Origin: Vampirovibrio sp.
GTDB taxonomy: Bacteria; Cyanobacteriota; Vampirovibrionia; Vampirovibrionales; JAJTHC01
Direction of reading: 5' to 3'
Length of the DNA stretch: 64,000 nt
NCBI GenBank assembly: GCA_024998755.1
Contig: JACEUU010000003.1
Location: 1,291,331-1,355,330, forward strand
Every line of letters begins with the position of its first letter. Positions within the stretch are counted from its first letter, which is position 1. Below, in pieces: positions 25,586 through 50,892 of this stretch. A program made the position numbers and the translations under genes. The notes beneath the pieces were generated by a model that was given only the letters and a program-made list of their open reading frames with translations, was not told the DNA's origin and did not search any database.

Positions 25586-26710
25586 AAGTTACGGAATAAG
25601 GGTGTGCAGGTGGGAGTAGTGAGTGTTTTTTAATAAAATTCAACCAAAAATGCTCAAAAAACAGAACAATACCCCTTGTTTCCACTCTTTTCGGATCATA
25701 ATTACCTAAAAACCATACAAGAATCCACTAAAACCTAACCCCTCCTCACCAAAAAACCATACCGACGACAATTATACCCAAATGCCAAGCCCACAATCTC
25801 CGCAGAAACACGCACTAACCCACGACAAGACACACGAACCTTCTTAAACACCGTCTTCCAACCCGCAAACACATGCTCCACTCTGGCCCTAATCTTAGAA
25901 ACCAACCCATTAAACCGCTTCTGCGAATCCGTCAACTCAGGCGTTGGTTCATGCTGCTTACCCCGAACACGACGCTTAATAATCCTCGGCTTTATCCCCA
26001 ATGCCTTTAAATCCTTCTCCTTACCCACATACCCACTATCCGCACCAACAGTCTGCTCATCGCCCACCAGTACAGGCAGTAAACTCTGACTGTCATGCAC
26101 ATTGGCACCAGTAACAACCACCTTGCGAATCAACTTGCTTTTAGCATCTACATTAACCGTGGCACTGTAACCAAAGCCTTTGTAGCCATAAGTGGCATCA
26201 GGGTCGCTCTGGTCTTCAGGCTTTTTTCTCTGTTTGCTATTGGCTTTAATAAAGGTGGCATCTACCAAGTTGCCTTCTTTAAGAATGAGGTTGTTCTCTT
26301 GGAAGAAGGTGTCTAAGGCTAAGAAAAGGGCTTCTTGGGCTGGGGTGTTTTGCAGTTCGTGTTGGAAGTTTTCGAGTGTCGTGGCTTCAGGGATGGGGGA
26401 TTCTAAGGAGAAGCCGAGAAACTTTCGGAAGGAGAGTCTGTCGTAGCATTGAAATTCGGTTTGTTCATAGGAGAGATTAAACCATATTTTGAGGAGGTTC
26501 ATTTTGAGCAGTAGTAGGCGTTTGTAGGGTGGTCTGCCGTTGGGTTTGTGGTGGATGTGTGTTTTGAGGATGGTTTCAAATAGTTGCCATGGTAGGGTTT
26601 GGTTCATTTCCTCTAGGAATTTGTGAGTGGGGGTGGGGTATCCTATGAGAGGTGGAATAATGTCCCTTCTATTTTAACCCAAAATTACCTTGCCCTTTTT
26701 CCGTAACTTC
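25586..26710 (-). mobile_element. IS5-like element copy 2 (inverted, 1125 bp, internally deleted variant), TSD AAAT
   Basis: Same terminal IRs. AAAT at 25582-25585 and 26711-26714. Relative to copy 1 it carries a ~50-bp 5' deletion, a 10-bp insertion and a 2-bp deletion that truncates the transposase. Confidence 0.8.
25735..26607 (-). pseudogene. IS5-family transposase, truncated at both ends (290 aa)
   Basis: Lacks the first ~30 aa, and a 2-bp deletion near the 3' end creates an early stop relative to copies 1 and 3. Confidence 0.65.
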
Positions 26711-27361: not shown

Positions 27362-29542
27362 CTAAAGCTTCTTCCATTTAAGACGTAATGCGTTAAGCAC
27401 AACGCTGACGGAGCTTAACGACATGGCTACCGCCGCAATGATGGGCGAGAGTAAGATGCCAAAAGCTGGATAAAGTATCCCCGCCGCCAAAGAAACCCCA
27501 ACCCCGTTATAGACAAAAGCAAAAAATAGATTTTGACGAATGTTTCGCATTGTCGCTTTGGATAAGTGAATGGCGGTAACTAGGTCTTTTAAATCCCCAC
27601 GAAGGAGCGTAACGCCTGCACTTTTCATGGCCACATCGGTCCCAGTTCCCATAGCAATACCCACTTCAGCAGTTGCCAGTGCAGGCGCATCATTAACACC
27701 ATCTCCTGCCATTGCCACAGAATGCCCTTTATCTTTTAGGGTTTGAACAATGCGGCTTTTGTCCTGAGGAAGAACGTCTGCATAAACCTCATCAATCGCA
27801 AGCTGCTTTGCAACGGCTTTGGCTGTGGTTTCATTGTCCCCAGTCAGCATGACGACACGAAGCCCTAACTGATGCAGTGCTTCAATAGCTTGCGGTGTGC
27901 TGGCTTTAATTGGATCGGTAACGGTAAGGAATCCGGCCAAGTCTGAGCCAATCGTCATAAAAACGACCGTTGCACCTTGGTTGCGGTACGTGTCAGCCTT
28001 TTTCTTTTGTTCCTCTGGCAACATAACCCCAACATCCTAGAGCAGGGCTTGATTACCCAAAGAAACCTGCTTGTCTTCTAACGAACCCGTGACCCCTTTG
28101 CCTGTTATCGATTTAAACTGTTTTACCTGGGTTAGGGTCAGCTGTTTTTTTAATGCCTTACGAACAATCGCTTCACCCAGTGGGTGCTCACTGCTTTGCT
28201 CTAAGCTTGCCGCTAAACGGAGCATTTCAGGTTCGGTAAAAGATTCAAGAGAAATGATGCTGGTTAAAACAGGATGGCCTTCTGTTAGGGTACCTGTTTT
28301 ATCAATGACTAACGTATCCACTTTTTCCAGGACTTCGAGAGCTGAGGCGTTTTTAATCAGGATTCCCAATCCAGCCGCGCGACCCATCCCAACCATAATA
28401 GACATAGGAGTAGCCAAGCCCAGGGCACAGGGGCAAGCAATAATAAGCACAGAGACGGCGGCAATTAATCCGTAGCTGAGGCCCTGAGTTTCTGCAAAAA
28501 GCGTCCACGCAACAAAGGCAACTGCTGCGATGAGTAAAACAATGGGCACAAACCATGCGGCCACTTTATCTACAACCCGTTGGATGGGTGCTTGGCTCAG
28601 CTGTGCGTCGGCCACCATTTTCACAATCTGAGACAGCATTGTATTGCTGCCAACTTTTTGAGCCCTGATGACAAGAGTGCCTTTGGCATTGATGGTTCCA
28701 CCAATAACCCCATCACCGACGCTTTTTGCAATAGGCATAGGTTCCCCAGTTATCATGGCCTCATCAACGTGGCTTTGTCCTTCAGTAACTTCACCATCCA
28801 CTGGGATTTTCTCTCCTGGACGGATTCGTAACAGATCACCAAGAACAATGGACTCAAGAGGAACTTCTTCTTCAGCCCCATCCTGTAACCGTCGAGCGGT
28901 TTTCGGAGCCAGATTCAACAGTGCTTTAATCGCTCCGCCAGTTTGCTCACGGGCTTTTAATTCCAAAATTTGCCCCAATAGTACCAAGACAATGATCACA
29001 GCCGACGCTTCGAAATAGACTGGAACGGTGCCGCCCGTCTGAAACGACGCTGGAAAGCTTTGAGGCGTTATAGTTGCCACAACGCTATAGAGCCAGGCAA
29101 CACCAGTGCCAAGAGTAATCAGAGTAAACATATTGAGTGACTGGTTAATAAGCGACTGCCAGCCTCGCCTAAAAAATGGCCATCCCGACCAAAAAACAAC
29201 TGGCGTAGCCAATGCGAATTGTATCCACGTTGAAAGCGTCTGCTCAATGAAATGAATATTGAATAAATGGTTCCCCATCTCTAAAACCAGAAGAGGAACG
29301 CTCAGCACCAGCCCCACCCAAAATCTTCGACTAAAATCAAGGAGTTGAGGACTTTTACCTTCTTCCTCTCCTGTGACAGTTTCAGGCTCAAGCCCCATGC
29401 CACACTTGGGGCAGATTCCAGGGCCTTTATGTTCGACTTCAGGGTGCATGGGACAGGTGTAGACAACCGTGCCTAGATCAATCCCAAAGACATCATCAGA
29501 GGTGGTTTTTTTTGTTTTGGCGTCATGATTGCAACAGTCCAT
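27362..29542 (-). pseudogene. copA: Copper-translocating P1B-type ATPase interrupted by an in-frame TAG
   Basis: N-terminal CPMHPEV/CPKCGM metal-binding site, CPC, DKTGTLT, and [10 protein letters not shown] hinge. The two ORF-track pieces (28037-29542 and 27362-28024) are in the same frame, separated only by the amber codon at 28037-28039 (...[15 protein letters not shown]...). Confidence 0.8.
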
Positions 29543-30180: not shown

Positions 30181-30360
30181 AAAAATGATGCCCTTAATCG
30201 ACAATCAAGAAGAAAACGTCGCTAGTTTTCTGCATAAGCACCTACAGGAAGATTCGTCTTTACGTTTAGTTTCTGCTTATTTTACGATTTATGCTTATGC
30301 TGGTTTGCGTGATCACTTGGCACAGTTAAAATCTGTTCGCTTTTTATTGTTTCATAAATA
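30181..30360 (+). pseudogene. 59-codon remnant resembling the N-terminus of a PLD-domain helicase/nuclease
   Basis: MMPLIDNQEENVASFLHKHLQEDSSLRLVSAYFTIYAYAGLRDHLAQLKSVRFLL resembles the N-terminal PLD-like module of defence helicases. Ends abruptly. Confidence 0.3.
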
Positions 30361-30719
30361 AGGTATCGGGTAAAAACGCGAAAAAGGTTGCTTGGGGGAT
30401 TACACAGGCGTTGAGGGGGTTTTACGTTCATACCGTGACGTTTGACAACAAAAAGAGTTTACGTGGCATTGGAAAATTGGGGAATCATTAGGGGTACAGA
30501 CGTTTTTTGCGGATTCTTATTCATCTTGGTAACGAGGGATAAATGAAAATACGAATGGGTGCGTATAAGGTTTGACACAATTCTACAGATTTTGCAGGTA
30601 TTCGATTTTATTGGATTTGAGGCAAAGTAAGTAATGAAATAGGTTGTTATTTTTCCCGCTAATTTGATGTGTTTTGCAGAAAAATTACACAGGAATTACA
30701 CAGAGATTCCACCTAAAAA

Positions 30720-30786
30720 TTACCGAACGGTAACAAATAGCCATTTTAGGCTAAAAATAGGCTATACTATTACCGTACGGTAACAA
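30720..30786 (+). promoter_or_regulatory. Two 17-bp palindromic boxes TTACCGAACGGTAACAA and TTACCGTACGGTAACAA, 50 bp apart, upstream of the hipB-like remnant; putative operators
   Basis: The second box is a perfect palindrome. HipB-type XRE regulators bind paired palindromic operators. Confidence 0.45.
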
Positions 30787-30814
30787 GGTTGAAACATAGG
30801 AATACTCTGCTAAA

Positions 30815-31030
30815 ATGACGGTTTTCATCAAAAAAGTGGCAGATATTGCTAAGCTGGTAAAAGAAGCCCGTTTGGAATAAGGCTTTACCCAAGTACGGCT
30901 ATCCCAATTGTGCAATGTAGGCACTCGGTTTATTGTGGATTTAGAAAAAGGCAAGCCCACCTGCCAGCTAGATAAAACGCTCAATGTCTTAGTAAATTTA
31001 GGTATCCGTCTTGAATATAATCAACTGTAA
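30815..31030 (+). pseudogene. HipB-like XRE-family HTH antitoxin with in-frame TAA; no hipA partner
   Basis: MTVFIKKVADIAKLVKEARLE * GFTQVRLSQLCNVGTRFIVDLEKGKPTCQLDKTLNVLVNLGIRLEYNQL. The stop replaces the Lys/Gln of the usual EARLxKGLTQ motif. Confidence 0.45.
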
Positions 31031-31197
31031 CCGCCATAAAATGATAGATGTTGTTGAACAACCTTTAATAAGACCGTCTCGTTATTAAAGAAAAATGTGT
31101 TAAGCTTTAATAACGTTGTTCGCTTATTAAAGGTTTAGAGTCATATATCCTCAAAAGAGGAAACAATTAAAGTCCAAATAGGAATAATAAAAACATC

Positions 31198-31740
31198 ATG
31201 ACAAAAAAATTATGGCAAAAATCGGCTATTTTGGGTGGCAAGTCGCAAGAGTATCGCTACCATCTGGCGAGACAGTGTTCAGGTCAAATACAGAAGCTGG
31301 AACATCCAGAGCAAGAGTTAAAAATGTCTTTTTTGTTGGTTGTGATGCTAAACCCAAGCACAGCGGATGCCGAAAAAGACGATAATACGATTACAAGGCT
31401 TATGAATTTTGCACGCCGACATGGCTTTGAACGGTTGGAAGTGGTAAATCTCTTTGCATTGAGAACGTCTAAGCCCTCTGAACTAGATAAAAATCCCAAT
31501 CCCGCTGGAGAAGATAATCCCAAATGGGTAGAAGGAAGGTTAAAGCAAGCCTCAAAAATTCTATTAGCCTACGGAACCAATTCGTTAAGCTCGCCATATA
31601 GTGCTATTTTAAAAGATCAATTGAAAGCTCTTGGCTTGGTAGAAAAAGTCTATTGTTTTCGTAAGAACAAAGATGGTAACCCAACTCATCCGAGTCGCCA
31701 CATGACAGATTCGTCCACTTTAATCCAATTTAATTTGTAA
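31198..31740 (+). CDS. DUF1643-family protein
   Basis: Family hallmarks MLNPSTADAEKDDNTITRL, VVNLFALRTSKPSEL and GNPTHPSRH. Confidence 0.7.
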   Translation: MTKKLWQKSAILGGKSQEYRYHLARQCSGQIQKLEHPEQELKMSFLLVVMLNPSTADAEKDDNTITRLMNFARRHGFERLEVVNLFALRTSKPSELDKNPNPAGEDNPKWVEGRLKQASKILLAYGTNSLSSPYSAILKDQLKALGLVEKVYCFRKNKDGNPTHPSRHMTDSSTLIQFNL

Positions 31741-31764
31741 AAATTCGAGCTAATAAAAGCTATA

Positions 31765-31932
31765 ATGTACCACCCGTATGCGTCAAAAGCCTTGGCATTA
31801 TCCCAGCCGACGGTTACGAAAGCGTTTCAAAAATTGGAGGCGTTGGGTATTGTGGTAGAAGTAAGCGGTAAGCAACGAGGACGCTTTTTTGCCTATTCGG
31901 CTTATACCGCTTTATTGAGCAACCCTTCATAG
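31765..31932 (+). CDS. Small winged-helix ORF (55 aa), possibly a Fic-type C-terminal wHTH remnant
   Basis: LSQPTVTKAFQKLEALGIVVEVSGKQRGRFFAY resembles the C-terminal wHTH of Fic-family proteins. Below the ORF-track length cutoff. Confidence 0.3.
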   Translation: MYHPYASKALALSQPTVTKAFQKLEALGIVVEVSGKQRGRFFAYSAYTALLSNPS

Positions 31933-31945
31933 GCTAAATTTTTAA

Positions 31946-31990
31946 AACGCCCCCGTTGCGATTGCGAAAGTTGCGAAAGTTGCGATTTTA
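31946..31990 (+). repeat. Tandem 9-bp repeat GTTGCGAAA/GTTGCGATT (about 4 units) upstream of the SIR2 gene
   Basis: CGTTGCGATTGCGAAAGTTGCGAAAGTTGCGATTTT, seen directly. Confidence 0.6.
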
Positions 31991-34900
31991 CCCTTCCTGT
32001 TTTAAAAACTGGTGGGCTTTTTGGTTTGCTACAAGGTTTGAAATTCGTTATAATACTTCTATTCTCGTTAATGTTTATAATGAAAGCTTATCATTGTTGA
32101 AATTTATACAACACCCCGCAGATTTACCGCCTGAATTACTGCAAGCCTATCAAGAACAAAAGCTCATCTTCTTTTGTGGGGCGGGGGTTTCCAACTATGG
32201 TGAGGAAATAGATAGCCATTACCATTCATTTGATGAATTATGTAGAGCCGTTTTAGATAGGTTTGATTTATCTTGGGAGTATAGACAATCCAATCTTGCC
32301 CAACAGTTGTATATACAACAAAGGTACGATGAATTACTTGAATATATGGTGGCACAGTATGGTTCTAAACAATTAAATGATTTTATTCAGCAATTGTTTA
32401 CAGAGCCACCAGCCCGTTTGAATTGTTCTCAGCATCAAACTATTTTAAAGTTGGCAAGTGGTGTAGGTGGTAGAATTGTAACCACTAACTTTGATACGTT
32501 ATTTACCAACGCACAGGAGCAATTACCTGAAAGTAAGCGTTTTAAAAATTTGTATGCACCTACCCTACCTATTGCTAGAGAAGAGCATTGGGAAGCGTCT
32601 TCTATTGTGTATTTGCATGGGGGTATGGAAGATACCAACCCCAAAAAACGACTAATTTACAGGAGTTCATGCTTTGGACAAGCCTATATTACTGATGGGT
32701 GGGCTGCCCGTTTTATTACAGAATTAGTGCAACATTTTCATCTTTGTTTTGTGGGTTATAGCATTAACGACCCTATTATGAATTATATGATGCAGGCTAT
32801 TAAAGTAAACGAAAAGAAACACTCTTGTCGTCGTTTTGTATGTCATGTTTCTGATTCGTTTATAGCTGCTAAAGAAGCTCAAACATTATTCAAAATTAAA
32901 GGGGTTGAACCAATAGCATTTAATACTTATCTTGATATGTGGAAAATACTGGATGAATGGCATGCCTTACAGCAACAAGATATTATTACTTTATGCCAGC
33001 AAGCATTTCAGTTGTTTGATCCTAAAGCCAACACCTTAATCCCTGAACAACGTTACGTCATTCAGCATCTAATCACTAAAGAAGAAAAAGAGTTTCGAAA
33101 ACTGGTAGAAGCGGTTACCGCAAAACAACTGCCCATAGGGTTGCTATATGCCATTGGACGCATCGATACCTTACAACGGATGGATAAAAGTGAACGAAAG
33201 AGAAAAAGCCAAGAGGCTGAAACGGATTTCGCTTTGTTTGATACGTTACCGAACTTAATCCAACCAGATTTTAAGCCAAACTGTTCGAATCCTTCATTTA
33301 GCCAATACGGGTACTTGTTTAGTCCAGCCAGCCAGCCGTTACACCCAGTAGCTTCTATATGTGCAACGCTTATTTGTCAAAACATCCATCAACCTGAAGT
33401 GTTGATGTGGGTATTGGAACAAAACGATGGTGGTTATTTAGCTCCATCTTTGGTGAATCAACTTAGTATTGCTTTACAGTTTTCTCAACATGAAGCCATG
33501 CCTGAAGGGCTGAAAAAGGGGTGGGAGCTTTTGTTGTTGAATCAACGGCTATTGCCTCGGGCAATTTCGAATGGGTTTGATTGTTTACCAGATGACCAGT
33601 TACAAAACAATACGCTTGCAACCCGTACCTATTTTACGCAAAAATTACGCCCTTACTTAAAGCTAACACCGCCTTATTACTATCGATTTTTTTTAGAACA
33701 GGATGATGAAAACAATCAACCCCTAGTTTACTATGAAGCAAAAATTGAATTTCAACAAAAGGATTTAACCTTTCACGAACTTGAAAAATGTAGCGAACAA
33801 ACAACAGACCCTGAGATGTTAATAGCGTTAATGGGGATTATTGAAAATACGGTGCATCAGTACTTACAATTGTTTGCTGAAATTGAAAAAGATGAGAGCT
33901 TTATACGTCTTTTTGAAATACCTTCTATCATAAGGCATGGACAAAATCAGGGTTATAGGCAGTTACCGCAGTTGTTTGCTGTTATAGAACTTTTGTTGGA
34001 CAAATTGGTTAAACAAAAAGTAGGCTGGTGTAATCAAACGATGGAACGCTATGCACAACAACCGCATACGTTATGGCATAGAATGGTATTAGCCTACACC
34101 ACTAAATATGAATTAAACCTAGAACCTGCATTGGCACTATTACGGGCTAATCAATACGCTTATATAGAAGTATTTAGCAGAATTAAAAAAGAATTTTATG
34201 AATTGCTAGAATATAAAGCAGACCGATTGCCTGATGATATAAGGCAAACTTGTTTTGAACTGTCACGCCAACCATCGAGAGATTATCAACAACACATTGA
34301 AGTAGGATGGGATAAAAACGAAAAATACAATGTGTTACGGTTGTTAAAAGCTCAAGGTATTGCGTTACCTGATGAAGCCTTAGAAACAGTGTATCAAACC
34401 TTATTGGAAGAACGTCAACAGTATCAACAGGCAGAAGACGCTACAGACCAATTCAAGTTTAGTGCTTATTCTACAGGGTTTACACGGGTTCAGCCCGATG
34501 CGATACCTGAAGAATTAAACGAAGGAAAAACTGACGCTGCGTTATTTGCGTACTTTAAAGGGGAGGGGGTTACCCATCGTTACCACTTGGATTTAGAAGA
34601 AACCTTCAGAGCATTTGTAGAAAAATACCCTGTACGGGCGTTTAATCAAGTATTTAAACCGTTATTGAATGAAAATGCTGCTCAATATAGCAAACTTTAT
34701 TTACGAGCGTTTGATTGGGGATTAGCTGCTTATATTGAACCCATCCATTCTTCTCCTAAGCAATCAGAACCTGAAGCATCGCCTCCTCCTCTGGTTACCC
34801 TACCAGATTTATGGACGTTAGTAGAATCGTTTTTTATGCTTGATACCGTGCATGATACCTGTCAAGCCCTTTACAGTAGTACCGCTTTTATTAGGAAGCA

Positions 34901-36011
34901 GTATAGAGCCTTATGGCAGGAAGATACCCATCGGTTTTGGCGGTTTTTTGAAATGGTGTGGCAACGGGCGGTACAAAAACTAGCCATTAGCGAGCAGAGC
35001 CGTCCAGATTTTTTATCTGATGCTATTAACGCACCCATTGGCAGATTAGTGGAAACATTATTGGATTTAGAACTTCAACGGTTGAATGAGAACCGTATTA
35101 GCACATTATTACCTGAAACGATTACTTATTTAGAAAGTATCCCCACCCTAGAAAACGGTACAATGTTGTACAGCCTGCTAGGTAGCAATTTAGCTTTATT
35201 GCTTAAAATGCACCTTGTTTGGACGGAAACACAGTTGATACCCCTACTAACTTCCACCACAGAACCTGAAAAAACCAAAGGGCTTGCTCTTTCAGAAGGC
35301 TTAATTGGCTATGGGCAGTGGACTGATTTAGTTCACAATCATTTAAAAGAATCGTTACTACAGTTAGATATGGGTGTTCATTTCAACGAACAGAGAGACT
35401 ACCAATTATTTAACAACTATGTATCTCGTATATTGGAATCTTATTTTGTTCCTCAGAATGAAGCACCTGATGTAGAAAAAATAACGCTGATAGAATTGCA
35501 CGCATGGTTGGCTTCCTTACCAACGCCAAAAAGTTTGGATTGTGTGGCTAGAGAACTGGTTGTATATTACAAACAGGTTTCTGTTGATGAAGCTGAAACG
35601 TTGATTGAACAGTTTTTAGCACCACTACTAACGAAGGGGTGGGTTAATACGGTAGATAAAAGAACCCCTCAGCAAACCAGTTGTTTTTTACAACTTGCAT
35701 TGGTGCATCCTAAGTATTTTGGTAAAATTATCAGCATCGTGAAAGAAGCAAACTTGATACTACGCTTACCTGATGAAGCCACATTCCATGATTTGTGTTT
35801 TTATTGGCTTGAAAAAGAACAGCTAGAAGCCTTAGCCCTAGAAGATTTTGAGTTATTTTGCAATGTAATATTAGATTATTTACCCCTGCAACCAATTAAT
35901 ACGAGTACGTATTTATTACAAGAATACTTGTATAAAAGGTTATTAGCACAGCAAACATATCCATTACCGAAAGCATTGGAAGCGTATTTTACTAGAATGT
36001 TACGCAACTAA
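31956..36011 (+). CDS. Defence-associated sirtuin (DSR2-like): N-terminal SIR2_2 NADase domain plus ~1000-aa helical C-terminal region
   Basis: SIR2_2 motifs in DSR2/ThsA order: KLIFFCGAGVS, IVTTNFDTL, IVYLHGG, CFVGYSINDP. The ORF-track start lies in a tandem repeat. The real start is probably TTG near 32094 (LKFIQHPADLPP...). Confidence 0.8.
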   Translation: MRLRKLRKLRFYPSCFKNWWAFWFATRFEIRYNTSILVNVYNESLSLLKFIQHPADLPPELLQAYQEQKLIFFCGAGVSNYGEEIDSHYHSFDELCRAVLDRFDLSWEYRQSNLAQQLYIQQRYDELLEYMVAQYGSKQLNDFIQQLFTEPPARLNCSQHQTILKLASGVGGRIVTTNFDTLFTNAQEQLPESKRFKNLYAPTLPIAREEHWEASSIVYLHGGMEDTNPKKRLIYRSSCFGQAYITDGWAARFITELVQHFHLCFVGYSINDPIMNYMMQAIKVNEKKHSCRRFVCHVSDSFIAAKEAQTLFKIKGVEPIAFNTYLDMWKILDEWHALQQQDIITLCQQAFQLFDPKANTLIPEQRYVIQHLITKEEKEFRKLVEAVTAKQLPIGLLYAIGRIDTLQRMDKSERKRKSQEAETDFALFDTLPNLIQPDFKPNCSNPSFSQYGYLFSPASQPLHPVASICATLICQNIHQPEVLMWVLEQNDGGYLAPSLVNQLSIALQFSQHEAMPEGLKKGWELLLLNQRLLPRAISNGFDCLPDDQLQNNTLATRTYFTQKLRPYLKLTPPYYYRFFLEQDDENNQPLVYYEAKIEFQQKDLTFHELEKCSEQTTDPEMLIALMGIIENTVHQYLQLFAEIEKDESFIRLFEIPSIIRHGQNQGYRQLPQLFAVIELLLDKLVKQKVGWCNQTMERYAQQPHTLWHRMVLAYTTKYELNLEPALALLRANQYAYIEVFSRIKKEFYELLEYKADRLPDDIRQTCFELSRQPSRDYQQHIEVGWDKNEKYNVLRLLKAQGIALPDEALETVYQTLLEERQQYQQAEDATDQFKFSAYSTGFTRVQPDAIPEELNEGKTDAALFAYFKGEGVTHRYHLDLEETFRAFVEKYPVRAFNQVFKPLLNENAAQYSKLYLRAFDWGLAAYIEPIHSSPKQSEPEASPPPLVTLPDLWTLVESFFMLDTVHDTCQALYSSTAFIRKQYRALWQEDTHRFWRFFEMVWQRAVQKLAISEQSRPDFLSDAINAPIGRLVETLLDLELQRLNENRISTLLPETITYLESIPTLENGTMLYSLLGSNLALLLKMHLVWTETQLIPLLTSTTEPEKTKGLALSEGLIGYGQWTDLVHNHLKESLLQLDMGVHFNEQRDYQLFNNYVSRILESYFVPQNEAPDVEKITLIELHAWLASLPTPKSLDCVARELVVYYKQVSVDEAETLIEQFLAPLLTKGWVNTVDKRTPQQTSCFLQLALVHPKYFGKIISIVKEANLILRLPDEATFHDLCFYWLEKEQLEALALEDFELFCNVILDYLPLQPINTSTYLLQEYLYKRLLAQQTYPLPKALEAYFTRMLRN
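32026..32054 (+). promoter_or_regulatory. Sigma-70-like promoter: TTGCTA - 17 bp - TATAAT
   Basis: The -35 at 32026-32031 and -10 at 32049-32054 with exact 17-bp spacing. A 6-codon out-of-frame uORF (ATG 32080, MKAYHC) overlaps the likely TTG start at 32094/32097. Confidence 0.5.
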
Positions 36012-36289
36012 AACGCTTCTATGGTGTTTTTGCAATCTTGAAACAACTGTTTAATCATCTGCCATTCATCCTTAGTCTCTTGGCTATAACAACCGTGCTT
36101 AAAATTACCCAAGCGTTGCCCCGCCTTCCCTTGAGGTGTTTTCGTCCCTGTGGATTTTCCCCCATGCAACCGACACCGCCCATTTTTCATGGCAGGTTGC
36201 TTACAAGGTAAACCGCTTCTTTTCCCCGTAGCTCCGCATTGCTTAAAAGGGTGAAGTATCGGGACAAGGGGTAGATCTTCAGTTTTCAT
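36008..36289 (-). CDS. Small Cys/His-rich protein with HGGxSTG motif (zinc-ribbon-like)
   Basis: CGATGKRSGLPCKQPAMKNGRCRLHGGKSTGTKTPQGKAG...FKHGCYS. Convergent with the SIR2 gene, overlapping it by 4 bp. Confidence 0.45.
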   Translation of the reverse strand: MKTEDLPLVPILHPFKQCGATGKRSGLPCKQPAMKNGRCRLHGGKSTGTKTPQGKAGQRLGNFKHGCYSQETKDEWQMIKQLFQDCKNTIEAF

Positions 36290-36299
36290 TATAGTCCTC

Positions 36300-36395
36300 C
36301 CCTATGCCACAAGGGCATTGACGGCGGGATGTTCTTTTTGCCCCGCTGGTGGACGGAACGCATCGGCAACTGCAGAGCAAACGCGATGGTCGTTC
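36300..36395 (-). repeat. Family F dispersed element (inverted copy)
   Basis: Reverse complement matches 55434-55530 at ~85%: GAACGACCATCGCGTTTGCTCTGCAG...GGGGCAAAAAGA.CATCCC...GTGGCATAG. Confidence 0.6.
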
Positions 36396-36555: not shown

Positions 36556-36862
36556 AGACACCGAACATTGTGCGAAGCCTCCACAACAGAACGGCTGGTT
36601 ATGGTATTCTCTATCCAAAGCGGTGGCATGACAGTTTGATTGAGACCCTACAATAGCTGTGAAATCTGAGAAGACTTGTAGAGAATTCAAGCAAAAGGTA
36701 GAGTCTACAGGACGTTTTTTCGGCTATATTACGGCTACTTTTTGGCTATGAAAGCAACGAATCCATCAAGCTAAGCCATCAAAAAACCCTGACAAAGGCT
36801 TGCTTATTTCATCCGTATCGGGTAAAATCGGGTATAATCAGGTATGTTATCGGGTATTTTTT

Positions 36863-37918
36863 ATGAATGAAGTCACACTTTCTTTATCTTCCGACCTTGT
36901 CAAACTCATTGCTGAGATTGACGAGTTTAAAGGGCGTTGGGATGCCTTAAAAGTTTTGTCTCCTGAACGCTTGAATGCCTTAAAACATACGGCAACTATT
37001 GAAAGCATTGGCTCTTCCACCCGTATTGAAGGGGTTGCCTTAACAGATGTTCAAGTAGAAACATTACTTTCTAACCTGCAAATGACCTCTTTTAAAAGCA
37101 GAGATGAGCAAGAAGTGGCGGGTTATGCCGAAGCGATGGATCTGGTGTTTCAAGCCTATGCGGAACTTCGCCCCACGGAAAACCATATCAAACAACTGCA
37201 CCAGCTTTTATTGAAACACAGCTCCAAAGATGACCGTCACCGTGGACAGTATAAAACACTCGCCAATCACGTTGTGGCGAAGAACGCTCAAGGTGTTGAA
37301 GTAGGCATTGTTTTTGAAACTACCACACCCTTTGACACCCCCCGTGAAATGGAAGAGTTGGTGCATTGGCTTAACAAGGCTATTCAGGAAGAGAGTTTTC
37401 ATCCGTTGTTGCTCGTGGCGGTGTTTGTCGTGTGTTTTCTTGCCATTCACCCTTTTCAAGATGGGAATGGTCGGTTATCCCGTGTTTTAACAACCTTACT
37501 GCTCTTGCGGGCGGGCTATGCGTATGTGCCTTATGCGTCTTTGGAACATGTGATTGAAGAAAATAAGGATTTATATTACAAGGCGTTACGCCGTACGCAA
37601 TTGACCCTCAACTCAAGCCAACCCGATTGGGAGCCTTGGCTGGGATTCTTTTTGCGTTGTCTAAAAAAACAAAAAGACAGGCTTCAACAGCGATTGGATA
37701 AGGAACGCCAAACCTCTAGCATAGATGAGGCACTGCCGTCCTTGTCTATAGAAATTTTAAAACTGCTAAGCCTTCATGAACGGTTGACCATTGCGGAGAT
37801 AGTGGGACTTACCAACGCCAACCAAAACACCCTCAAGGTAAGGCTTCGGGAGTTAGTGGCACTCGGTCGAATACAGCGTTTTGGCAAGGCCAGAGCAACT
37901 TGGTATAGATTGGCATAG
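36863..37918 (+). CDS. Fic/DOC family protein (AMPylation fold) with C-terminal winged helix
   Basis: Fic motif HPFQDGNGRLSRVL and C-terminal wHTH LTIAEIVGLTNANQNTLKVRLRELVALGRIQRFG. Start taken at MNEVTLS. Confidence 0.8.
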   Translation: MNEVTLSLSSDLVKLIAEIDEFKGRWDALKVLSPERLNALKHTATIESIGSSTRIEGVALTDVQVETLLSNLQMTSFKSRDEQEVAGYAEAMDLVFQAYAELRPTENHIKQLHQLLLKHSSKDDRHRGQYKTLANHVVAKNAQGVEVGIVFETTTPFDTPREMEELVHWLNKAIQEESFHPLLLVAVFVVCFLAIHPFQDGNGRLSRVLTTLLLLRAGYAYVPYASLEHVIEENKDLYYKALRRTQLTLNSSQPDWEPWLGFFLRCLKKQKDRLQQRLDKERQTSSIDEALPSLSIEILKLLSLHERLTIAEIVGLTNANQNTLKVRLRELVALGRIQRFGKARATWYRLA

Positions 37919-38532: not shown

Positions 38533-41520
38533 TTACCTAGCAAGACCATATCGTTCTTCCCTTTTTTGAAAGGCAGTTTTTCCTCCTTCCAAAATGCCAC
38601 ATATGCGATCTCTAATCCCTTCGGCACGACAGTCTTCCAGAGGACCAGATGAATATCTAATACAAGGAAGTCCCCCACTCTTATCGCATTCAGCAATAAT
38701 TACTTGTTCTGAATCAGTATTCACAACTAAATTAGGGTTATGAGTAACTAGAAAAATTTGGCGACGTTTTTTTGCTTCTCGGAAATGGGGAACCAGTAAA
38801 GAGTAAACAGACTCATTATCTAAATTTTCTTCTGGCTGATCAACAATCAAAGGCCGAGTGTCATCAACATCTAAAATAAGATAAAGAATTAGTAACACAA
38901 TCCCCTTGGTACCTGGAGAAAGTTTATCCAGTTCAGTGTTGTTGTATCGCAAACCATACTCAAGAGTGAATGATGCCACGGATACTATAGCCCTCAAAAT
39001 ATCATCAGGCTTGCTCGATTTCTTTAGAAAGGTATCATAAACAGCCTGTTCACAATCGAATGCTATAAATAAATCTTTGACTGATTCTATAAGTAAATCA
39101 TTTTGCAAGTTGCTCCAATAAGATTGGAGTTGTTCAGCTATATTGGCTACCTCATCAATGCTCTTAGGAAGAGACGAAAAACGGCGACCATCAAACAGGT
39201 TCTCTATTCTTTCGTTCCAACCTTTAGTATCAAATCGCTGTCGAATATAAAAGCTTAATTGTTGGTTGCCCAGTCCTGTCCTGTTGAGATGCTCCTCAAC
39301 AGGCTTGTAAAGCTCTGTTAGCAAATCATTCTCTTTTTTGAACGACTCAAAAATCTTTCCGAAGTGTACCCAAATTTGGGATAATTTGTTAGTTATAGCA
39401 GCAACGTCGCTTTCCTCAATCCGCTTTACCTCAATACGAAGTTGGTTCAGTTCGCCGTTAATTTTACTTAGCTGTGTCTGCAAGGATTGTATTTTTTCCC
39501 TAGTTGCTTGGTTCGATGAAACCTGTGTTTCCAGCTCCTTCAGCTTACCTTCAGTCCAAAGAACTGTACCCTCACTCGCAGGCTCGTTGCCGAGGATACC
39601 CTGAACCTTGGATTGAATGCTTGTTTTTGACTCTTCAAAAAGGTTACTAAATGTAGGGAGTAATGCAGTTTTTGGGATTAGAATATCATTGCTATTGGAA
39701 TGCACCAGTCCGAGGTCTGAAACCCGCAATTTAATGGATCTAATAAATTCATCTGTATTTGAATCAAATGAGGCAATATCTTGATACAATTCATCGATAG
39801 AAAGAAGGCGTTCCCGTAAAGAGGCAACCTGCTGATTTAAGCTCTCCAAGTCACTTTGATACTTTGCTAAAGACTCGGTAAATATTGCTTCATCTCCTAT
39901 AGCAAGGGAATCAATTTGATCTTTGAACTGCTTACTATTCTCCTCAAGCTCTTGTATTTTTATACGCTTTGCAGGCAGTGTTGAAATCCTGTCTCGGAGT
40001 GCAAGTCTCTCCGTAATCAAGCCCTCTATAGTTGTGACGTGTTCACTACGCTCCTTATAGATCTGTGCAGTTTGACGCGATCTCAGTTGGTTGAATGAGG
40101 AGGTGCCATAGCGCAAGTCTATTGGAATGTGAGAAAAGACGACCTTCTCAACTTCGGTTGCCAGGGTACCTCCCGCATGATCTTCAGAGCAGAGTTGCTC
40201 AACAAATCGTTGCGAAAGGTATCTTACGCCAGAAGAAGTGGAAGGGGCTTGATTGAGAGTAGCCTCAGATTGCTTTCCGTCAACCCATGCAAGGGTAACT
40301 TTTGTGCCATCAAGGTGTTCTTTTGCACGCTCAATAAATGTTTGTTTCTGATCTGATGACCATCCCCCAGCGGCATAAGCAATTAACTCAGCTAGAGCGG
40401 ACTTGCCTGATCCTCGTGCACCTACGATGGATACTAAGCCACGATTAAGTGGTATTTGAGTACTCCCACCAAACCAGAGATCATTTGCGGATGTAATAGA
40501 TACAGACTCAATAACATGAGCATCCACGTGATGAATGGGTGGAACCTCGCCAATGAAAACACGATCGGCGGGTTCTGCTAATATTTGTCGAAGACCATCA
40601 AAGGTTGGATCTGCCTTTATCCAGCAATAACGTTTCTGGGCTGGCTCTAATAAAGTGGTAAGATCATGTGCATCACAGCCATGTAGACAAGCTTTTTGCC
40701 CACCGCATTGATGTAAAGTATCATCGTTAGAAGGGACTCCAGTTTTCCCAAGCCAAAAATTCCTATCCTGCGGATTCGCAGAAAAAATGGCGTGAGATCT
40801 GGCAGAAATATTTATCCGTAAAGCTCCAAATCCACCTTGGAAACTAAGCCCACCAATACCATCTTTTCCTCCTGAGACAATAATAATCGAGTTAACTTTT
40901 AACCAAGCTTGATTGTCATACCATTCGAAGAATGCAGTTTGTTCGATTTTGAACTGATTAACGCCTTCACGGTATGCAGAAGCGTCATCCTGTATAGAAG
41001 GTTCATAATCTTTGCCCAGTCGAGTTATATCATTCTTAGTACAACGGTAACGCCTGCCGTTACTGTACGAAAATGTTAGCTCTTCTAGAGCTCGATTAAT
41101 TTCGTTCTCGTGAGATGGATCATCAGGTGATATCAAAAGATGTAGGTTAACACCTTGACCAGAAGACGTTTGTGGAGAAATACGAAACTCTATGTTGGGG
41201 AATATCTCGCAAATATTTTGGATTCGGTTGTTTGTGTACTTTTCTAAACGTACTTTAGAGTAGTTGGTTATTGACAGATAATCTGTAATTCCAAGCACAG
41301 CAACATCATTCTTCGATTCAATAATTGAAAAATACGCATCCCAGTCACCTTTAAAACGATCTTCCAAAGCTGTGCCCGGTGTGTGTATATGTAAATCCCA
41401 TCGCTTCCACTCGGAACCTCGTTCAATAAACAGCCTTTGGCCTGACTGTAACCCTTTTTCAATAGGTGATTTTAGAACTGTGGTTATCACAGACGACGCT
41501 TCCATTTTCTGCTCCATCAC
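38533..41520 (-). CDS. PHP-domain phosphoesterase fused to a coiled-coil SMC/Rad50/OLD-like ABC ATPase (995 aa)
   Basis: N-terminal PHP motif [10 protein letters not shown]. Walker [15 protein letters not shown]. Central heptad-rich region. C-terminal ABC signature/Walker B/H-loop [16 protein letters not shown]. Overlaps the DUF499 gene by 4 bp, so operonic. Confidence 0.8.
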
Positions 41521-44348
41521 TCAAACTCCGCATTCTTGAATTTCAGAACAGAACAGTTTTCTTTCACATCACGTTGAATCTTATCATCAAAGGCTGAAGC
41601 AGTTTCAGCTCTGAGTTCAATATGTAGGCTAACCTTGACATCGTGCCGTGCTGAAAATTTTTGTACTACCTCATCAACGATTTCGGCAAAGGCTAACTTG
41701 GCCTTGATCGGATCAAGCTCGACTGTGCCATAGAATGAACGCTTTACCTGTAGAGACTCAACAGGCATAGATCCTGGCTTGGTTGAGAACACTCCTAGTT
41801 TAGTAGGAAATGGGCTTACAGTTCCTGTTGCTTCCGATACAGATCCAGGTTGAGCATCAGGATTTGTAGGAATTTTAACAGCTTCGGCGGCAGCTTTCTG
41901 CACAAGCTGCTCCAAAGCTACCGAGGGCTCTACCAACAAAAGACTTGCATCCAGAATTGGTATTGTTTCGTTTCCAAGTGTCAAGCCCAAATACCCGTTT
42001 GCATCCTTCCCATAAGCCAGGCCAAAAAAGTCTTTACTACTTGCTCCAATTGCCAAAGTCTTCTTGAATGTCTCCTCATCCCGCAAGCGTGGCAGATAAA
42101 GATAGTTACAGCATTTCTGCCACACTTCGAGAGCCCCTGCGTTATGTTGAGGCTCTTTCCAGAACCAATTTTTCAGGAGGTTTGCTAAATGAATCGGAGC
42201 CCATTCGCTAATCAGTAATTCGTTTTCTCGCAGCCTTAACTCGACCTCTTTCACAAGATTCTGGCTACCACTAGATAGCGCAATAGGTTCCCAGATGATT
42301 TCGGAAAGTCCCTTCCCTAGTCTTTCTTCCTGAATAGGAACAAGCAACCATCGGTAAGTTTCTCGCACCATACGAACCAGAGCCTGTTTTGTATCCTCTT
42401 CATTCTTCTGTGCTTGCCGCGTTTGATATTGATCAAGATTAAGCCTCAGCTCTTTGATATCTGCGTTGATTGATTGCCATGCAAGCACACTACGCACCTG
42501 ATCGCGGAGTCGGGCAAGACTATCAGAGTCTGCAGCAAGGAAAAGTAAGCGATTTTGGCGAAGACGGGGCTGGTCTCCACGTCCTTTGAGGATTTCGGTA
42601 GCCTTTTCCACCGCTATACTAGCGGTAGCCTTTAAGTAACCTGCATCCAAACCCAAAACCACTAGGCGAAGGCTGGAATCATCCGGTACATCACCACTTT
42701 GGGCAAAAATATGAGAAGAGAATACCCCTCCTCTTAACAGCACTTGTAGTTGTTGTTTAACGAGCGGAGACACGTCTTCGCGATCCTGAAAACGACGCTT
42801 GCGGTCTTCCATCTCACGACGTAAGTTTGGTCGAGTATCAAACCAAAAACGACTATTGCCACTGTTGAGGTAGTGAAGGCGGTCAGTCAGCCGCTTGAGC
42901 GCATCCTTGAAAACCGCTACTTGTTGGCCGGGCTGAACACATCCCAGAATGACCCGCTCCAGCTCGATCCCGCGCACCATTTGTCCACCAGTCGTGGGTG
43001 CGCTACCTAAAAAAATCGTCCGAGCTGCTCGACGTGCTGCCTGAACGGAACCAAATCGACCCTCATTGTCAATATTGACAGTCGTCTCTGCTTTTTCTCC
43101 GTCGATATCACGCTCTAGTACAGGATCCCAACCTTGGGGCAGGTAGTAGATCGCTTCGTTACGAACGTCAGAGTCATATAGGGGGATGCTTCCTGGCATC
43201 ACCAGCAAATCGGTGTTGTTATCCTTCCAAAGCCTGTGTATGACCTTGGCCATTAGCTTTAGGACGCCCCGAGTACGCTGGAACTTATCCAAGGTTGACC
43301 AGTCTTCATACAGCCGATCAAAAACTTCTGGATGAATGGGGTAAGCATTCTTCAGCCGGTCGAAATATCGCCCTTCAATGGTTTCATGGGGAAACTCCCC
43401 ATCGTTTTGAATGTAGGTGTCGGCGAAGGCCCGACATACCTCGTCCATAGCTTTGGGGTCACTGAAGCGAACGAATAAACGTCGGCGGACGATCTCGAAG
43501 GCTTCTTCGGTTGCAACAGGCTTCCAAATGGCCTGAACCCGACCAAAATATTTCTCTAGCGCATCTAGTGCAGCCTCAGCCCTTGCACTACCAACCTCCA
43601 GCTTGGATTCTGGTAGCGAGGCCAACAATATGGCGTTGGGCACCGATTTTAGTGCTTCGGTCAGCGATTGAATAAAGGTTAAATTGCTATCAAACGTGCC
43701 GGCCGGATAGCGTTTCCCTTCATCAAACTGGCGCAGATAAGCAACCAGCTCGTCCATGAGGATGACGCAGGGTGCATGTTCCTTGAGCAGTTGAGAAAGT
43801 GTGTCCTTGGCTGGAGACGTTCCGTTGGCATCCGATTCTTTAATCTGATCGAACGCAGTAGCACCGCCTAGTTGCCAGGCAAGTTCACCCCACAAGGTAC
43901 GGATTTCATGGCCATTACGTTTGCTGGGTTTGCTGGGGTCAAGATTGATACCGTCCAGCACCACCAAACGCGCTTTGGGTAGTTCGGTAATACCTGCTGC
44001 ATCCAGGATAGCGGAGATTCCTTGCAGTTCGCTAGCGGGAACCTCGCCTTTGGCTAAGTGATAGACGGCCAGCATGGTATGGGTTTTACCGCCACCAAAC
44101 GCCGTTTGAAGCTGGATAACCGGATCCCCACCTTGTCCTGTGATTCTTTTTGCCACGCTACCAAGCAACAAGCGCATGCCTTCGGTAATGTAAGTACGTT
44201 CAAAGAAATAAGCAGGGTTCTGGTACTCTTCAGTTGCCGACCCGGCATGAACACGCGACAGATCAGCGGCAAACTCGGCTTGCTGGAAAGTGCCTTTCAG
44301 CACGTCTTCATGGGGAATGGCGACTTCACGCCAAGGTTTTAAGGTCAT
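41517..44348 (-). CDS. DUF499-family ATPase (BrxC/PglY-like)
   Basis: Canonical DUF499 N-terminus [30 protein letters not shown] and P-loop [12 protein letters not shown]. Confidence 0.8.
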
Positions 44349-44367
44349 TGTGTCAATGTCTCCAAGT

Positions 44368-47277
44368 CTACACTTCCAGTTTCATCTGGGTATTAACGCG
44401 GCCTGCCTCGTGCGATGCTTTTTCGACAGCATACCAGGCGGTAATCAGCTCATTATAGAAGCGGGCTTCTTCTGCCCAGCCTTTACGCTCGCATAGGGTA
44501 TAAAGGCGATAAGCCAGTTGGCGAATGGCTTCCGTACGTTCCGGCATACCTGCTAAAAGGCTTCCTGCTTCGCTTTCGCCGCCTTTGTTCAAGGCACGAA
44601 TCATCTGGTGCAGGGCTTCCCACACCGGCGTGTTGTTATCTCTGGCCGGATGCCAGTCATCGGGGTATTCCAGAACTTTGAGCAGGCGCACTTTGCCAGC
44701 CCCAGACTCAATCACACCAGCGTCTTTTAGACCTTCAACACTGGTGCCCTTGGCACGTGCCAAAACATCTGCCTGGCCAAACACGCCAGAAGCCCAGTTA
44801 TATTCATCAAACCAAGCGATGCAAAAGCGGGTATCGGCATCCAGTTCGCCTTCGGCTTCGTTAAAATAATCGTCAATTGATTTATTGATCAGGGTAAGTG
44901 CTGTATGGACGCTCATCGGTGAGCCGTCGGCTTCTAGCACTTCGGTATATTTGCTAAACACGCCCATACCGGGGCCAATGGCGGCTTGCGCCAAATCCAC
45001 TGGGGCAATGGGGCTGTGGGCACCTTTACCGCCAATCATGGCTTCCAACGCTTCGGGAAGTGTTTCTTTCAATTCTGCCAGAAACTGACGGCGATTAATG
45101 GTTTCGGCATGGGCAGGGCGTGGGCGACAGACCAGCACAATGCTGGATGCTAGTGCATTGGCACCAGAGCCGATCATGCGGTTTGCTAGCTCGGTACGCA
45201 TGGGCCAAGTGCCTGTTAAGGCAAAACCTGATCGAATGACCGCTTCCAGAAAGGTTTCCCAGCCGGTAGAAGAGGTGCTTCCTTCTTTGGTTTCGGCCTG
45301 TTTGAAGGCATAGTAAATGCTGACGGGGAAGGCCCCATGAGCTTGCACTGCCAGATTATGCATCGCTTGGGTCATGCCATCGAGAAAGAATTTTTCGGCG
45401 TTTTGCTTGTTGCCGTGGCGGTATGGCGTGGCCACCAGTTCTTCGGCCTTGGGCACAGCTAGTGTACCCAATAATTCGGGTAGCACGGTTTTCAAACTTT
45501 TACGCAGCCAAACATAGAAAAAGTCAGACAAATCAGCATAGCCGATATTGTCGTAATAGGGGGGATCCGTGGAAACGACCTTGTTTTGGCTAATAGTTTG
45601 GGTTTGGGCATCATTCTGCCTAACGCTTGAATCAGTTGTTGCGGGCAAATTATGAAGCAACTTAATTCCCGATTCGATGCCGAGCAGAAAATTTCCAGAA
45701 GAATCACTAAATGGATTTGCTTCTGAAAAATCCCAGACCATTGGTAGAGCTTGACGGCCGAAGGTACTTGTAATTGTATCTCTTCCGGAGTGCCAAGAAC
45801 ATATATTGGACCAATAGTTGGCTCCCTTATCAACCGCAAAAGCCAAATAAACCGAGACAGCATCAGCATAGGCGGTGGGGCCTGTGCCGCCTTGCTCCAG
45901 TCCAAGGCCATCGTCTGCCCATTCGTTGGCCAAGGCGTCTTCCAGCACTTTGTTGCGGGCTTCCTGCACCAGGTCGCTAAAGGTGGTCAACGCCACCAAT
46001 TGCCGTGGCGTGAATAGATCGCCATAAGTCTTTAGTCCATACAACGGGGGAGAGAACCAACGAGGATTCTCTGGCATCGCCACGTCTGGCTTCCAAGAGG
46101 GTTCAGCAATTCGTGCGATTGCTTCCATCTCTTGCGTGGGCTCCAGATAAACTCTCCCCCTAGAGCCTTCTGCAACAATGGCCATCAAGCGAGAGCCCAT
46201 TCGCCCTGCATTTGCTTCAGAATAAATGTAGGCTGGCGCAATGGGCGTATCGGTCATCAGACAGCGGAAATTTGCTCCTCGTGACAGCTTGGTACCTGTC
46301 TTCACCGTTTCGGCATGTTTTGGCGTACCCGTACGGATAGTAAACTGATAGCGGTCGCCTTCAATCACTGGCTCAACATAGGCTTCCTTGCCCTTTTTGG
46401 TGCTTAGGTAAAAGGTGCTGGCCAGTGGTACATCCACATGGCTAAAGGCCGGGTTGGGGCTTTTCACCGTTCTTGCCCAAATCCAGGCAATCACGGTGGC
46501 TTCGCCACCACCGTATTCTTTGGGCAACGTTACCTTGGGGTATAAATGGCCAATACGTTTAAAGGCTTCTTCCCGCATCCAATGGCCATAGCGTCGTACA
46601 TCTTCCGCCAGGCCTTTCGCACCGCTCCAGTCTTCAATAAACTGAGCAGGTTTTTTCTTATCTTCTAGACCTTCCTTTGTTAAAGGGCCAATCGGTTTAC
46701 GCCCAGCAAATTTGGGTGGTATTTCAATCATTGCCTTGTTAATCAGCACAGCTACCGGGTTTAAATCGCTAGCCCAGCTTTCCAGCCCCAACCGTTGTGC
46801 TTCCAGCGGAATCGCTCCACCGCCAGCAAAGGGATCGTGAAAGGCGGGCAATTTCTCGGGGTTAAACAGTTCGGCTGCTTCCGGGTGGTTCTTGTTCAGA
46901 TCGCAGGTTTCACGCCAGCTTTTCCAGATTTCGGCGCGGGCTTCGTTCAGCACGGCTTCGTTATTGGTATTTTCCCACAGCACCAGCTTGCGAATAATTT
47001 CAAACAGCCGTTCCCGATCTAGCTGGGCGGCTTGCTTGTTCATCCCTCGGTTCAGGTGGCGTTCATAGCCGGGGTCATTGACCAGTTGGGCAAATAATAC
47101 CGCCCGTGCTGCAGCCAAAGGCCGTCGTGCCCACCACAAATGCAGGGTAGAAGGATGCCCATGCCGAATAGATTTTTCTCGTGCCGATGCCACATTGATG
47201 TCATCCAGGGGCAAGGCCACTTCAATCAATTTTTTGGGTGCCTTAATGGGCACAGATTTATCAGTAGCAGGTGGCAT
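44368..47277 (-). CDS. DUF1156-family N6-adenine DNA methyltransferase
   Basis: DUF1156 signature [41 protein letters not shown] and catalytic motif [14 protein letters not shown]. Confidence 0.85.
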
Positions 47278-47295
47278 GGAAGTTCCTCAATATCT

Positions 47296-50881: not shown

Positions 50882-50892
50882 CGTGCCATTCG

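Follow-up and report, generated by a model that had tools for sequence, protein, structure and literature searches.

We examined a defense-related locus in a 64,000-nucleotide stretch of Vampirovibrio sp. DNA (contig JACEUU010000003.1, positions 1,291,331 to 1,355,330), hereafter called the window. At this locus, a DUF1643 gene, a short open reading frame (ORF), and a gene for a large SIR2-domain protein follow one another on the forward strand (Table 1). The three ORFs of the original prediction were all found in the ORF list, with lengths of 180, 55, and 1351 amino acids (aa), and the longest large frame runs there from 31956 to 36011 on the forward strand. The locus was compared with a sister locus, L001, a 16.8-kb metagenome contig from the Joint Genome Institute (JGI) that carries P0001, the sole close relative of the large protein (87% aa identity) in a search of 5.8 billion proteins.

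Table 1. Features of the locus and its surroundings, in window coordinates
Feature	Position	Strand	Description and evidence
Dsr1-family sirtuin gene	32097..36011	+	1304 aa from TTG; domain, profile, motif, and dN/dS evidence
SIR2 NADase domain	32097-32960	+	aa 1-288; part of the Dsr1-like gene
Linker, poorly conserved	about aa 290-420		Part of the Dsr1-like protein
All-alpha solenoid sensor (predicted)	about aa 422-1216 and beyond		Part of the Dsr1-like protein; model and profile
Sigma-70-like promoter site TTGCTA-17-TATAAT	32026..32054	+	10/12 consensus match; 43 bp 5' of the start codon
Tandem 9-mer TTGCGAAAG	31962..31985	+	2.7 copies; TRF score 48; 100% matches
Putative upstream ORF (uORF)	32071..32100	+	9 codons, MFIMKAYHC*; TGA overlaps TTG 32097 as TTGA
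DUF1643 gene	31198..31740	+	180 aa, intact; PF07799, 114 bits
Former SoFic-type Fic 5' flank	31062..31156	+	Two REP-like palindromes and first ~14 nt of the Fic ORF
617-bp cassette with DUF1643	31157..31773	+	No counterpart in L001; blastn/MAFFT breakpoints
55-aa ORF, Fic 3' remnant	31765..31932	+	Last 51 codons from about 31774
HGGxSTG-domain ORF	36008..36289	-	93 aa; NF041373, 51.9 bits vs 29-bit cutoff
Second SoFic-like Fic gene	36800-37918	+	372 aa, intact; PADLOC SoFic, E = 3.4e-50
Hma (helicase-methylase-ATPase) defense system	38533-50364	-
HmaC	41517-44348	-	Full length
HmaB	44368-47277	-	Full length
HmaA	47296-49446	-	Lacks first ~515 aa; cut by IS5-family copy
IS5-family transposase copy	49399-50364		Truncates HmaA
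Second IS5-family copy	25735-26607		Orientation opposite to the copy at 49399-50364
Type IIG restriction-methyltransferase fragment, then specificity subunit	50558-51990	+	C-terminal fragment of 107 aa; subunit of 365 aa
hipB with premature TAA	30815-31024	+	Q22*; compared with L001 331-1771, where hipB is intact
Copper/heavy-metal P-type ATPase, split	27362-29542	-	Two adjoining ORFs, 501 + 220 aa
58-aa ORF (MMPLIDNQEENVASFLHKHLQ...)	30185-30361	+	By eye like the N-terminus of a helicase/PLD-type defense protein

The large protein was matched by the Pfam family PF13289 (SIR2_2) with an E value of 5.7e-16, a check that had been proposed for it. Counting residues from TTG 32097, the catalytic motifs were intact, with FFCGAGVS at residue 25, TTNFD at 129, YLHGG at 172, and GYSINDP at 220. 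These results support the earlier call of a SIR2-domain effector of the defense-associated sirtuin type. However, the protein had been described as DSR2-like, and its best models were those of Dsr1. The top PADLOC matches were three Dsr1 models (E = 1.8e-59, 3.7e-54, and 2.2e-07), the ThsA and LmuA models followed at E ~1e-6, and the PADLOC Dsr2 models gave no match. The sole NCBIfam match was also Dsr1 (NF041818, E = 6e-75). A word-indexed search of the 5.8 billion proteins returned 270 homologues at E <= 1e-5. Among the 120 matches listed, most were 1217-1312 aa long, identity to the query was 23-37%, the best local alignments spanned up to 93% of the query, and several were named "anti-phage defense-associated sirtuin Dsr1." A Dsr1-family profile built from 115 of the homologues aligned in two blocks, the first joining residues 1-288 to profile positions 1-290 (E = 1.2e-68) and the second joining residues 422-1216 to positions 417-1190 (E = 1.4e-36). 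Together, these matches indicate that the protein is Dsr1-like from end to end, with the SIR2 domain as its only part in common with DSR2. It is longer than DSR2, as the original prediction had pointed out with a figure of about 350 aa, but carries nothing extra, since its length is normal for Dsr1.

DSR2 of B. subtilis (PDB 8K98 and 8WKS) likewise has an N-terminal SIR2 NADase followed by a helical sensor and acts as a single-gene NAD+-depletion defense, but its chains are about 1005 aa long, compared with 1304 aa for the window protein. The Dsr1 profile reached DSR2 chains in the PDB via SIR2 residues 13-141 only (E = 1.6e-3), the single sequence matched no DSR2 chain at E <= 0.01, and DSR2 was absent from the best 50 Foldseek matches of the C-terminal model. 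Membership of DSR2 was thus rejected, as was assignment to ThsA of the Thoeris system. ThsA was the only match of the single-sequence PDB search (8wc0, E = 8e-4); this match and those of the PADLOC ThsA models (E ~2e-6) covered the SIR2 part alone. In ThsA, SIR2 is fused to a SLOG/STALD domain and a ThsB TIR gene adjoins, whereas the window protein has no SLOG domain and its gene is neighbored by DUF1643, the Fic remnant, the HGGxSTG ORF, and a Fic gene. The window protein resembles Dsr1 (NF041818 and the PADLOC Dsr1 models) in being a single polypeptide of about 1250-1300 aa, in its N-terminal SIR2_2 domain with GAGxS, TTNFD, YLHG, and GYSINDP, in the long all-alpha C-terminal sensor aligned over profile positions 417-1190, and in its stand-alone gene within a defense island. 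The C-terminal 1014 aa were modeled by AlphaFold2 (AF2) as an all-alpha solenoid, for which Foldseek gave only generic HEAT/karyopherin matches.

The original prediction held that the gene starts at a TTG located 3' of the start of the longest ORF, and the comparison bears this out. Because the family profile begins aligning at residue 1 of MKFIQHPADLP, L001 has an in-frame TAA one codon 5' of the equivalent TTG, and the next candidate lies 3' of the GAGVS motif, the true start is confirmed by alignment as TTG 32097. No in-frame ATG, GTG, or TTG occurs between 32097 and this motif, the next candidate being 32307, and the gene call on the sister contig likewise opens at the equivalent TTG. The 47-codon extension back to 31956 is noncoding. 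The original prediction had also called an annotated ATG start almost certainly wrong, but no annotation accompanies the window. Since the real start is TTG 32097, the spacing between DUF1643 and the sirtuin gene is 356 bp and not the 216 bp given before.

In addition, the ratio of nonsynonymous to synonymous substitution rates (dN/dS) between the window and L001 genes was 0.30 overall, 0.22 in the SIR2 domain, and 0.31 in the rest, over ~9% nucleotide divergence. This ratio indicates that the Dsr1-like gene is maintained under purifying selection. Nucleotide identity was 97.1% in the SIR2 domain, 91.3% in the linker, and 90.5% in the C-terminal sensor, and the sensor thus evolves faster than the effector domain.

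Several signals lie ahead of the start codon. The near-consensus promoter of the original prediction is present, with 10 of 12 positions matching, but such a match is not rare in AT-rich DNA. In 6.3 kb, 12 promoter-like sites were found compared with 16.3 +/- 3.8 in shuffled sequences, and the match is unremarkable alone because shuffles of this AT-rich region give more sites. The site is identical in L001 and is plausibly the own promoter of the Dsr1-like gene. The tandem 9-mer predicted ahead of it was found as 2.7 perfect copies, 41-64 bp 5' of the -35 hexamer; L001 has one additional unit, and the copy number varies between strains. The predicted uORF of six codons also exists, from ATG 32080, and its stop overlaps the TTG start, but it is nested in a 9-codon version, which is the only one kept in L001 (MFIIRAYNR*, without the internal ATG). 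No Shine-Dalgarno sequence precedes the uORF, and its ATG lies ~10 nt from the predicted transcription start. Extra conservation of the promoter was considered and rejected, given that identity to L001 is 95.7% in the intergenic region compared with 96.9% in the Fic remnant and 97.1% in the SIR2 domain. The promoter, repeat, and uORF were no better conserved than their flanks. No known RNA family was identified between 29500 and 37000 by Rfam (E <= 1).

Next, the region upstream of the sirtuin gene was aligned with L001 by blastn and MAFFT. L001 has no DUF1643 gene; in its place, an intact 395-aa Fic gene with Fic_N and Fic domains (382 bits on PADLOC SoFic) lies codirectionally upstream and ends 177 bp ahead of the Dsr1-like gene. 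Homology to the window comprises L001 8555-8649 (window 31062-31156, 91.6% identity) and L001 9668-14232 (window 31774-36304, 91% identity). The intervening L001 8650-9667, about 1018 bp and nearly the entire Fic ORF, is replaced in the window by 31157-31773. The breakpoints of homology are at 31156/31157 and 31773/31774, and the metagenome contig L002, which is 99% identical, has identical junctions. At the left side, the Fic ATG, with which the L001 gene starts at 8636, has been turned into ATA at window 31143-31145. At the right side lies the 55-aa ORF, which had been predicted as a winged helix-turn-helix (wHTH) ORF. The ORF is present, but it is a remnant of the Fic gene and not a regulator gene. 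Its ATG and first three codons are contributed by the inserted cassette, and the remaining residues are identical (51/51) to residues 345-395 of the L001 Fic protein. The ORF matches positions 313-359 of the 361 in PADLOC SoFic (E = 1.8e-6), and the Fic catalytic motif HxFx(D/E)GNGR is not present in it. Thus, the ORF resembles SoFic (PADLOC PDLC03963, a single-gene Fic-domain defense candidate) at the C-terminal winged-helix end, but keeps the last 51 codons alone, without the Fic catalytic domain. The possibility that the 55-aa ORF is a duplicate of the Fic gene lying downstream at 36800 was rejected (BLASTP, E = 0.14).

Because parts of the Fic gene survive to the left and right of the cassette, the order of events is clear: Fic preceded the cassette. 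The alignment indicates a recent insertion of the DUF1643 cassette, which wiped out the neighboring Fic defense gene. No terminal inverted repeats of the cassette were found. A clean target-site duplication was considered, as TCAAAAG occurs near both junctions, and rejected, as the right-side homology to L001 runs ~10 nt past it. The remaining 5' flank holds two repetitive extragenic palindrome (REP)-like palindromes of 28 nt at 31063-31090 and 31105-31132 (CTTTAATAA-N10-TTATTAAAG, 42-nt period; two found compared with 0.03 expected), which may be recombination substrates. An additional unit of this array is present in contig L002, and in L001 the REP-like palindromes are present on either side of the kdp cluster.

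The DUF1643 protein matched PF07799 with 114.1 bits against a gathering threshold of 22.5, over positions 11-133 of 134, and gave no match in PADLOC or NCBIfam. Its AF2 model has an alpha/beta three-layer fold with a predicted local distance difference test (pLDDT) score of 90 and a predicted template modeling (pTM) score of 0.87. The best Foldseek match to PDB structures was weak (E = 0.02), the family profile had no match among PDB sequences, and hhalign against E. coli Ung, for which an approximate sequence was used, gave a probability of 1%. The predicted fold weakly resembles those of uracil-DNA glycosylase (UDG), Toprim, and nucleoside deoxyribosyltransferase. Among the invariant positions are MLNPSTAD, which follows the third strand (strand residues 45-50 in the model), N84-L85, R89, and P162-x-H164-P165. 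The family matched 1091 plasmid records, 883 of them conjugative, and the records sampled were mostly large enterobacterial plasmids. The 136 phage records matched include Pseudomonas phages and Caulobacter jumbo phages. On plasmid pYR1 (L087, NC_009139.1 19403-19891), typed as IncC, the gene lies within a block of small hypothetical genes. DUF1643 has also been described as cargo of an ISL3-family element (PMC13231603) and appears in the literature on SCCmec elements and on phages of Stenotrophomonas. The window protein and those of conjugative plasmids and phages, such as the pYR1 IncC backbone and Caulobacter phage CcrColossus, form one Pfam family of about 150-190 aa with conserved MLNPSTAD, VNLF..R, and P.HP motifs. 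However, the window protein is 30-43% identical to all relatives outside its own locus, and its gene stands alone on a 617-bp cassette within the remains of a Fic gene. The leading guess is an activity directed at a nucleotide or DNA.

We examined the gene neighborhoods of 80 DUF1643 genes sampled across GTDB species-representative genomes, with flanks of up to 10 kb in both directions (5315 ORFs). None of the 80 loci had a Dsr1-type SIR2 ORF within +/-10 kb (Dsr1-type SIR2 profile, E <= 0.01). The 155 immediate neighbors (77 upstream, 78 downstream) belonged to heterogeneous Pfam families, and SIR2_2 was not among the 25 commonest of these, a ranking that a single SIR2_2 neighbor could escape. 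PADLOC matches at E <= 1e-10 were found for one upstream neighbor (of 77) and six downstream neighbors (of 78), and none was a sirtuin. The only recurrent neighbors were HMUDK_hel upstream (6/77), MazG_C/MazG downstream (6/78), and DnaE-like polymerases (up to 4/78). Six DUF1643 loci among L004-L083 thus have a 5-hydroxymethyldeoxyuridine (5-hmdU) DNA kinase gene upstream, and six have a MazG_C-type gene downstream. Judged by neighbor size and spacing, these are probably the Nostocales loci L007, L008, L035, L037, L049, and L052, and their neighbors hint at a link between DUF1643 and DNA base modification.

The same question was asked from the side of the sirtuin. At three distant Dsr1 loci, the neighbors were a helicase, DUF2971 with a reverse transcriptase, and CBASS-like genes, and DUF1643 was absent. 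Neighbors differ between L001 and these three loci, and the Dsr1-like gene appears to be a single-gene system with no conserved partner. Short contigs from other samples carry a 99%-identical DUF1643 protein (P0121). They are not independent evidence, because L002, the one compared, is the same locus with the same junctions. As there is no conserved link between DUF1643 and SIR2 genes, the position of DUF1643 beside Dsr1 is judged to be incidental.

Altogether, we favor, with a probability of roughly 80%, the explanation that the locus holds three independent items, neighbors by history, in a decaying defense island. One would be a stand-alone sirtuin gene from TTG 32097 to 36011, divergent yet intact, that belongs to the known Dsr1 family, whose members are single-gene anti-phage sirtuins that destroy NAD+. 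Another would be a wrecked SoFic-type Fic gene, of which the 5' flank, the first ~14 nt, and the last 51 codons persist. The third would be the 617-bp DUF1643 cassette, which would have replaced the ~1-kb Fic interior and would now lie behind the former Fic 5' region. The sirtuin most likely works as in characterized Dsr1 proteins, by analogy with which the C-terminal helical-repeat sensor would bind a phage structural protein and free or activate the SIR2 NADase; NAD+ would then be hydrolyzed and fall, and phage replication would stall. DSR1 consists of one SIR2-domain protein, which confers defense when cloned alone and depletes NAD+ during infection; in B. subtilis with DSR1, the depletion was transient and the culture did not collapse (bioRxiv 10.1101/2021.12.14.472415). 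The sensor of Dsr1 consists of helical repeats (a TPR domain) and is homologous to that of Avs7; for EcDsr1, the E. coli Dsr1, the unique trigger of toxicity was the phage major capsid protein (PMC12803255). Because the sensor in the window is only about 18-19% identical to canonical members, the trigger here may differ from the major capsid protein.

Several points weigh against this explanation. The window protein is far from a canonical Dsr1: identity to typical members is 18-25%, the 252.8 bits on NF041818 fall below the equivalog cutoff of 1400 bits, and ~130 aa (residues 290-420, the linker) plus the last ~90 aa are unaligned to the family profile. It is thus best regarded as a divergent relative and not an NCBI-grade equivalog. 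It comes from a Vampirovibrio-like metagenome-assembled genome (MAG), its activity and trigger are assigned by analogy only, and neither trigger specificity nor NADase activity can be assumed at such divergence. Confidence in the C-terminal model is moderate (pLDDT 69). In addition, the stretch from DUF1643 to the Dsr1-like gene contains no predicted terminator, and read-through cotranscription of the two genes is possible today. The Dsr1-type SIR2 profile used for the 80 loci could overlook very different SIR2 subfamilies. Lastly, the history comes from a single comparison with the sole close sister locus; no further sister loci turned up when metagenome contigs were scanned for a protein pattern and for the exact promoter DNA.

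The original prediction had read DUF1643 and the SIR2 protein as a two-gene defense module in which DUF1643 serves as a sensor, regulator, or nucleotide-modifying partner. The two genes share a strand with 356 bp and no predicted terminator between them, the arrangement recurs in the short metagenome contigs, and the DUF1643 fold is weakly like those of nucleotide- or DNA-processing enzymes. However, the recurring contigs are one locus at 99% identity, next to the sole other close Dsr1-like gene an intact Fic gene takes the place of DUF1643, and DUF1643 lies within the remains of such a gene. Neither the 80 DUF1643 loci nor the three distant Dsr1 loci combine the two genes, and the promoter-like site of the Dsr1-like gene is unchanged in both arrangements. 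The original prediction had stated that DUF1643 genes without enrichment near SIR2 or defense genes would argue against such a module, and the survey of the 80 loci went against it on this point. This module is highly improbable. It is also quite improbable that the ancestral unit was a SoFic and Dsr1-like pair and that the window shows this module after Fic loss, with Dsr1 crippled or rewired. PADLOC models SoFic and Dsr1 separately, and each protein matches its own model alone; DSR1 defended without a partner in the cloning experiments cited above (bioRxiv 10.1101/2021.12.14.472415), Fic genes are absent from beside the three distant Dsr1 genes, and the Dsr1-like gene is intact and under purifying selection. 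Such a pair would fit the codirectional genes 177 bp apart in L001, the second SoFic-like gene 0.8 kb downstream in the window, and the C-terminal wHTH remnant kept at 100% aa identity, but this identity fits a recent event equally, as the flanking DNA is 95-97% identical.

Broken surroundings raise another explanation, namely that the Dsr1-like gene is a functionally dead, decaying passenger like many of its island neighbors: hipB carries a premature stop, hipA has been lost and Fic destroyed, an IS5-family copy truncates HmaA, and the copper ATPase is split. This is improbable for a gene whose frame is open for 1304 codons, whose SIR2 motifs are all intact, and whose dN/dS against the sister gene is 0.30 over about 9% nucleotide divergence. 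In a further and rather unlikely proposal, DUF1643 would be a single-gene defense or counter-defense enzyme acting on nucleic-acid bases, which displaced SoFic by cassette swapping at a defense hotspot and is expressed from the former SoFic 5' region; separately, the Dsr1 sensor may recognize something different from the major capsid protein. A base-acting DUF1643 is compatible with the abundance of the family on conjugative plasmids and phages, the Nostocales neighbors, and the weak fold likenesses.

If the three genes are independent, as we favor, annotation of DUF1643 as a partner of the sirtuin, or of the 55-aa ORF as a regulator, would be wrong, and a false lead is avoided. From a predatory Vampirovibrio-like lineage, the locus contributes a Dsr1 sensor variant that has diverged deeply. 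It could help the study of how Dsr1/Avs7-type sensors diversify, with the SIR2 domain 97% and the sensor 90.5% identical between two strains. The locus also provides a clean, datable case in which an accessory gene overwrote a defense gene in place while the 5' region of the victim was retained. This cassette replacement illustrates gene turnover in defense islands. These points would not surprise a specialist.

The surroundings are a decaying defense island. One protein encoded in the window is identical to MCS6267999.1, which is annotated as an NAD(+) synthase of Vampirovibrio sp. Downstream, the HGGxSTG ORF converges on the Dsr1-like gene, overlaps its stop by 4 nt, and occupies the same position in L001 (13936-14220). 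The intact Fic gene that follows, 0.8 kb 3' of the Dsr1-like gene, is no paralogous duplicate of the destroyed one. Beyond it lies the Hma system, in which an SMC/AAA ATPase of 995 aa (38533-41520) with partial similarity to Ppl adjoins HmaC. The Type IIG fragment directly follows the IS5-family copy that truncates HmaA and represents a broken defense system.

Upstream, hipA is missing from the window, and so is a kdpABC-kdpD cluster, which in L001 lies between hipBA and Fic. The split copper ATPase is probably a pseudogene. The 58-aa ORF was considered as the missing N-terminus of HmaA and rejected because it gave no PADLOC match; it is probably another gene fragment. Two 14-nt palindromes, TTACCG(A/T)ACGGTAA at 30720-30733 and 30770-30783, occur 50 bp apart. 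They flank a site ahead of hipB that resembles a promoter (30789-30816), and they look like putative HipB operator sites.

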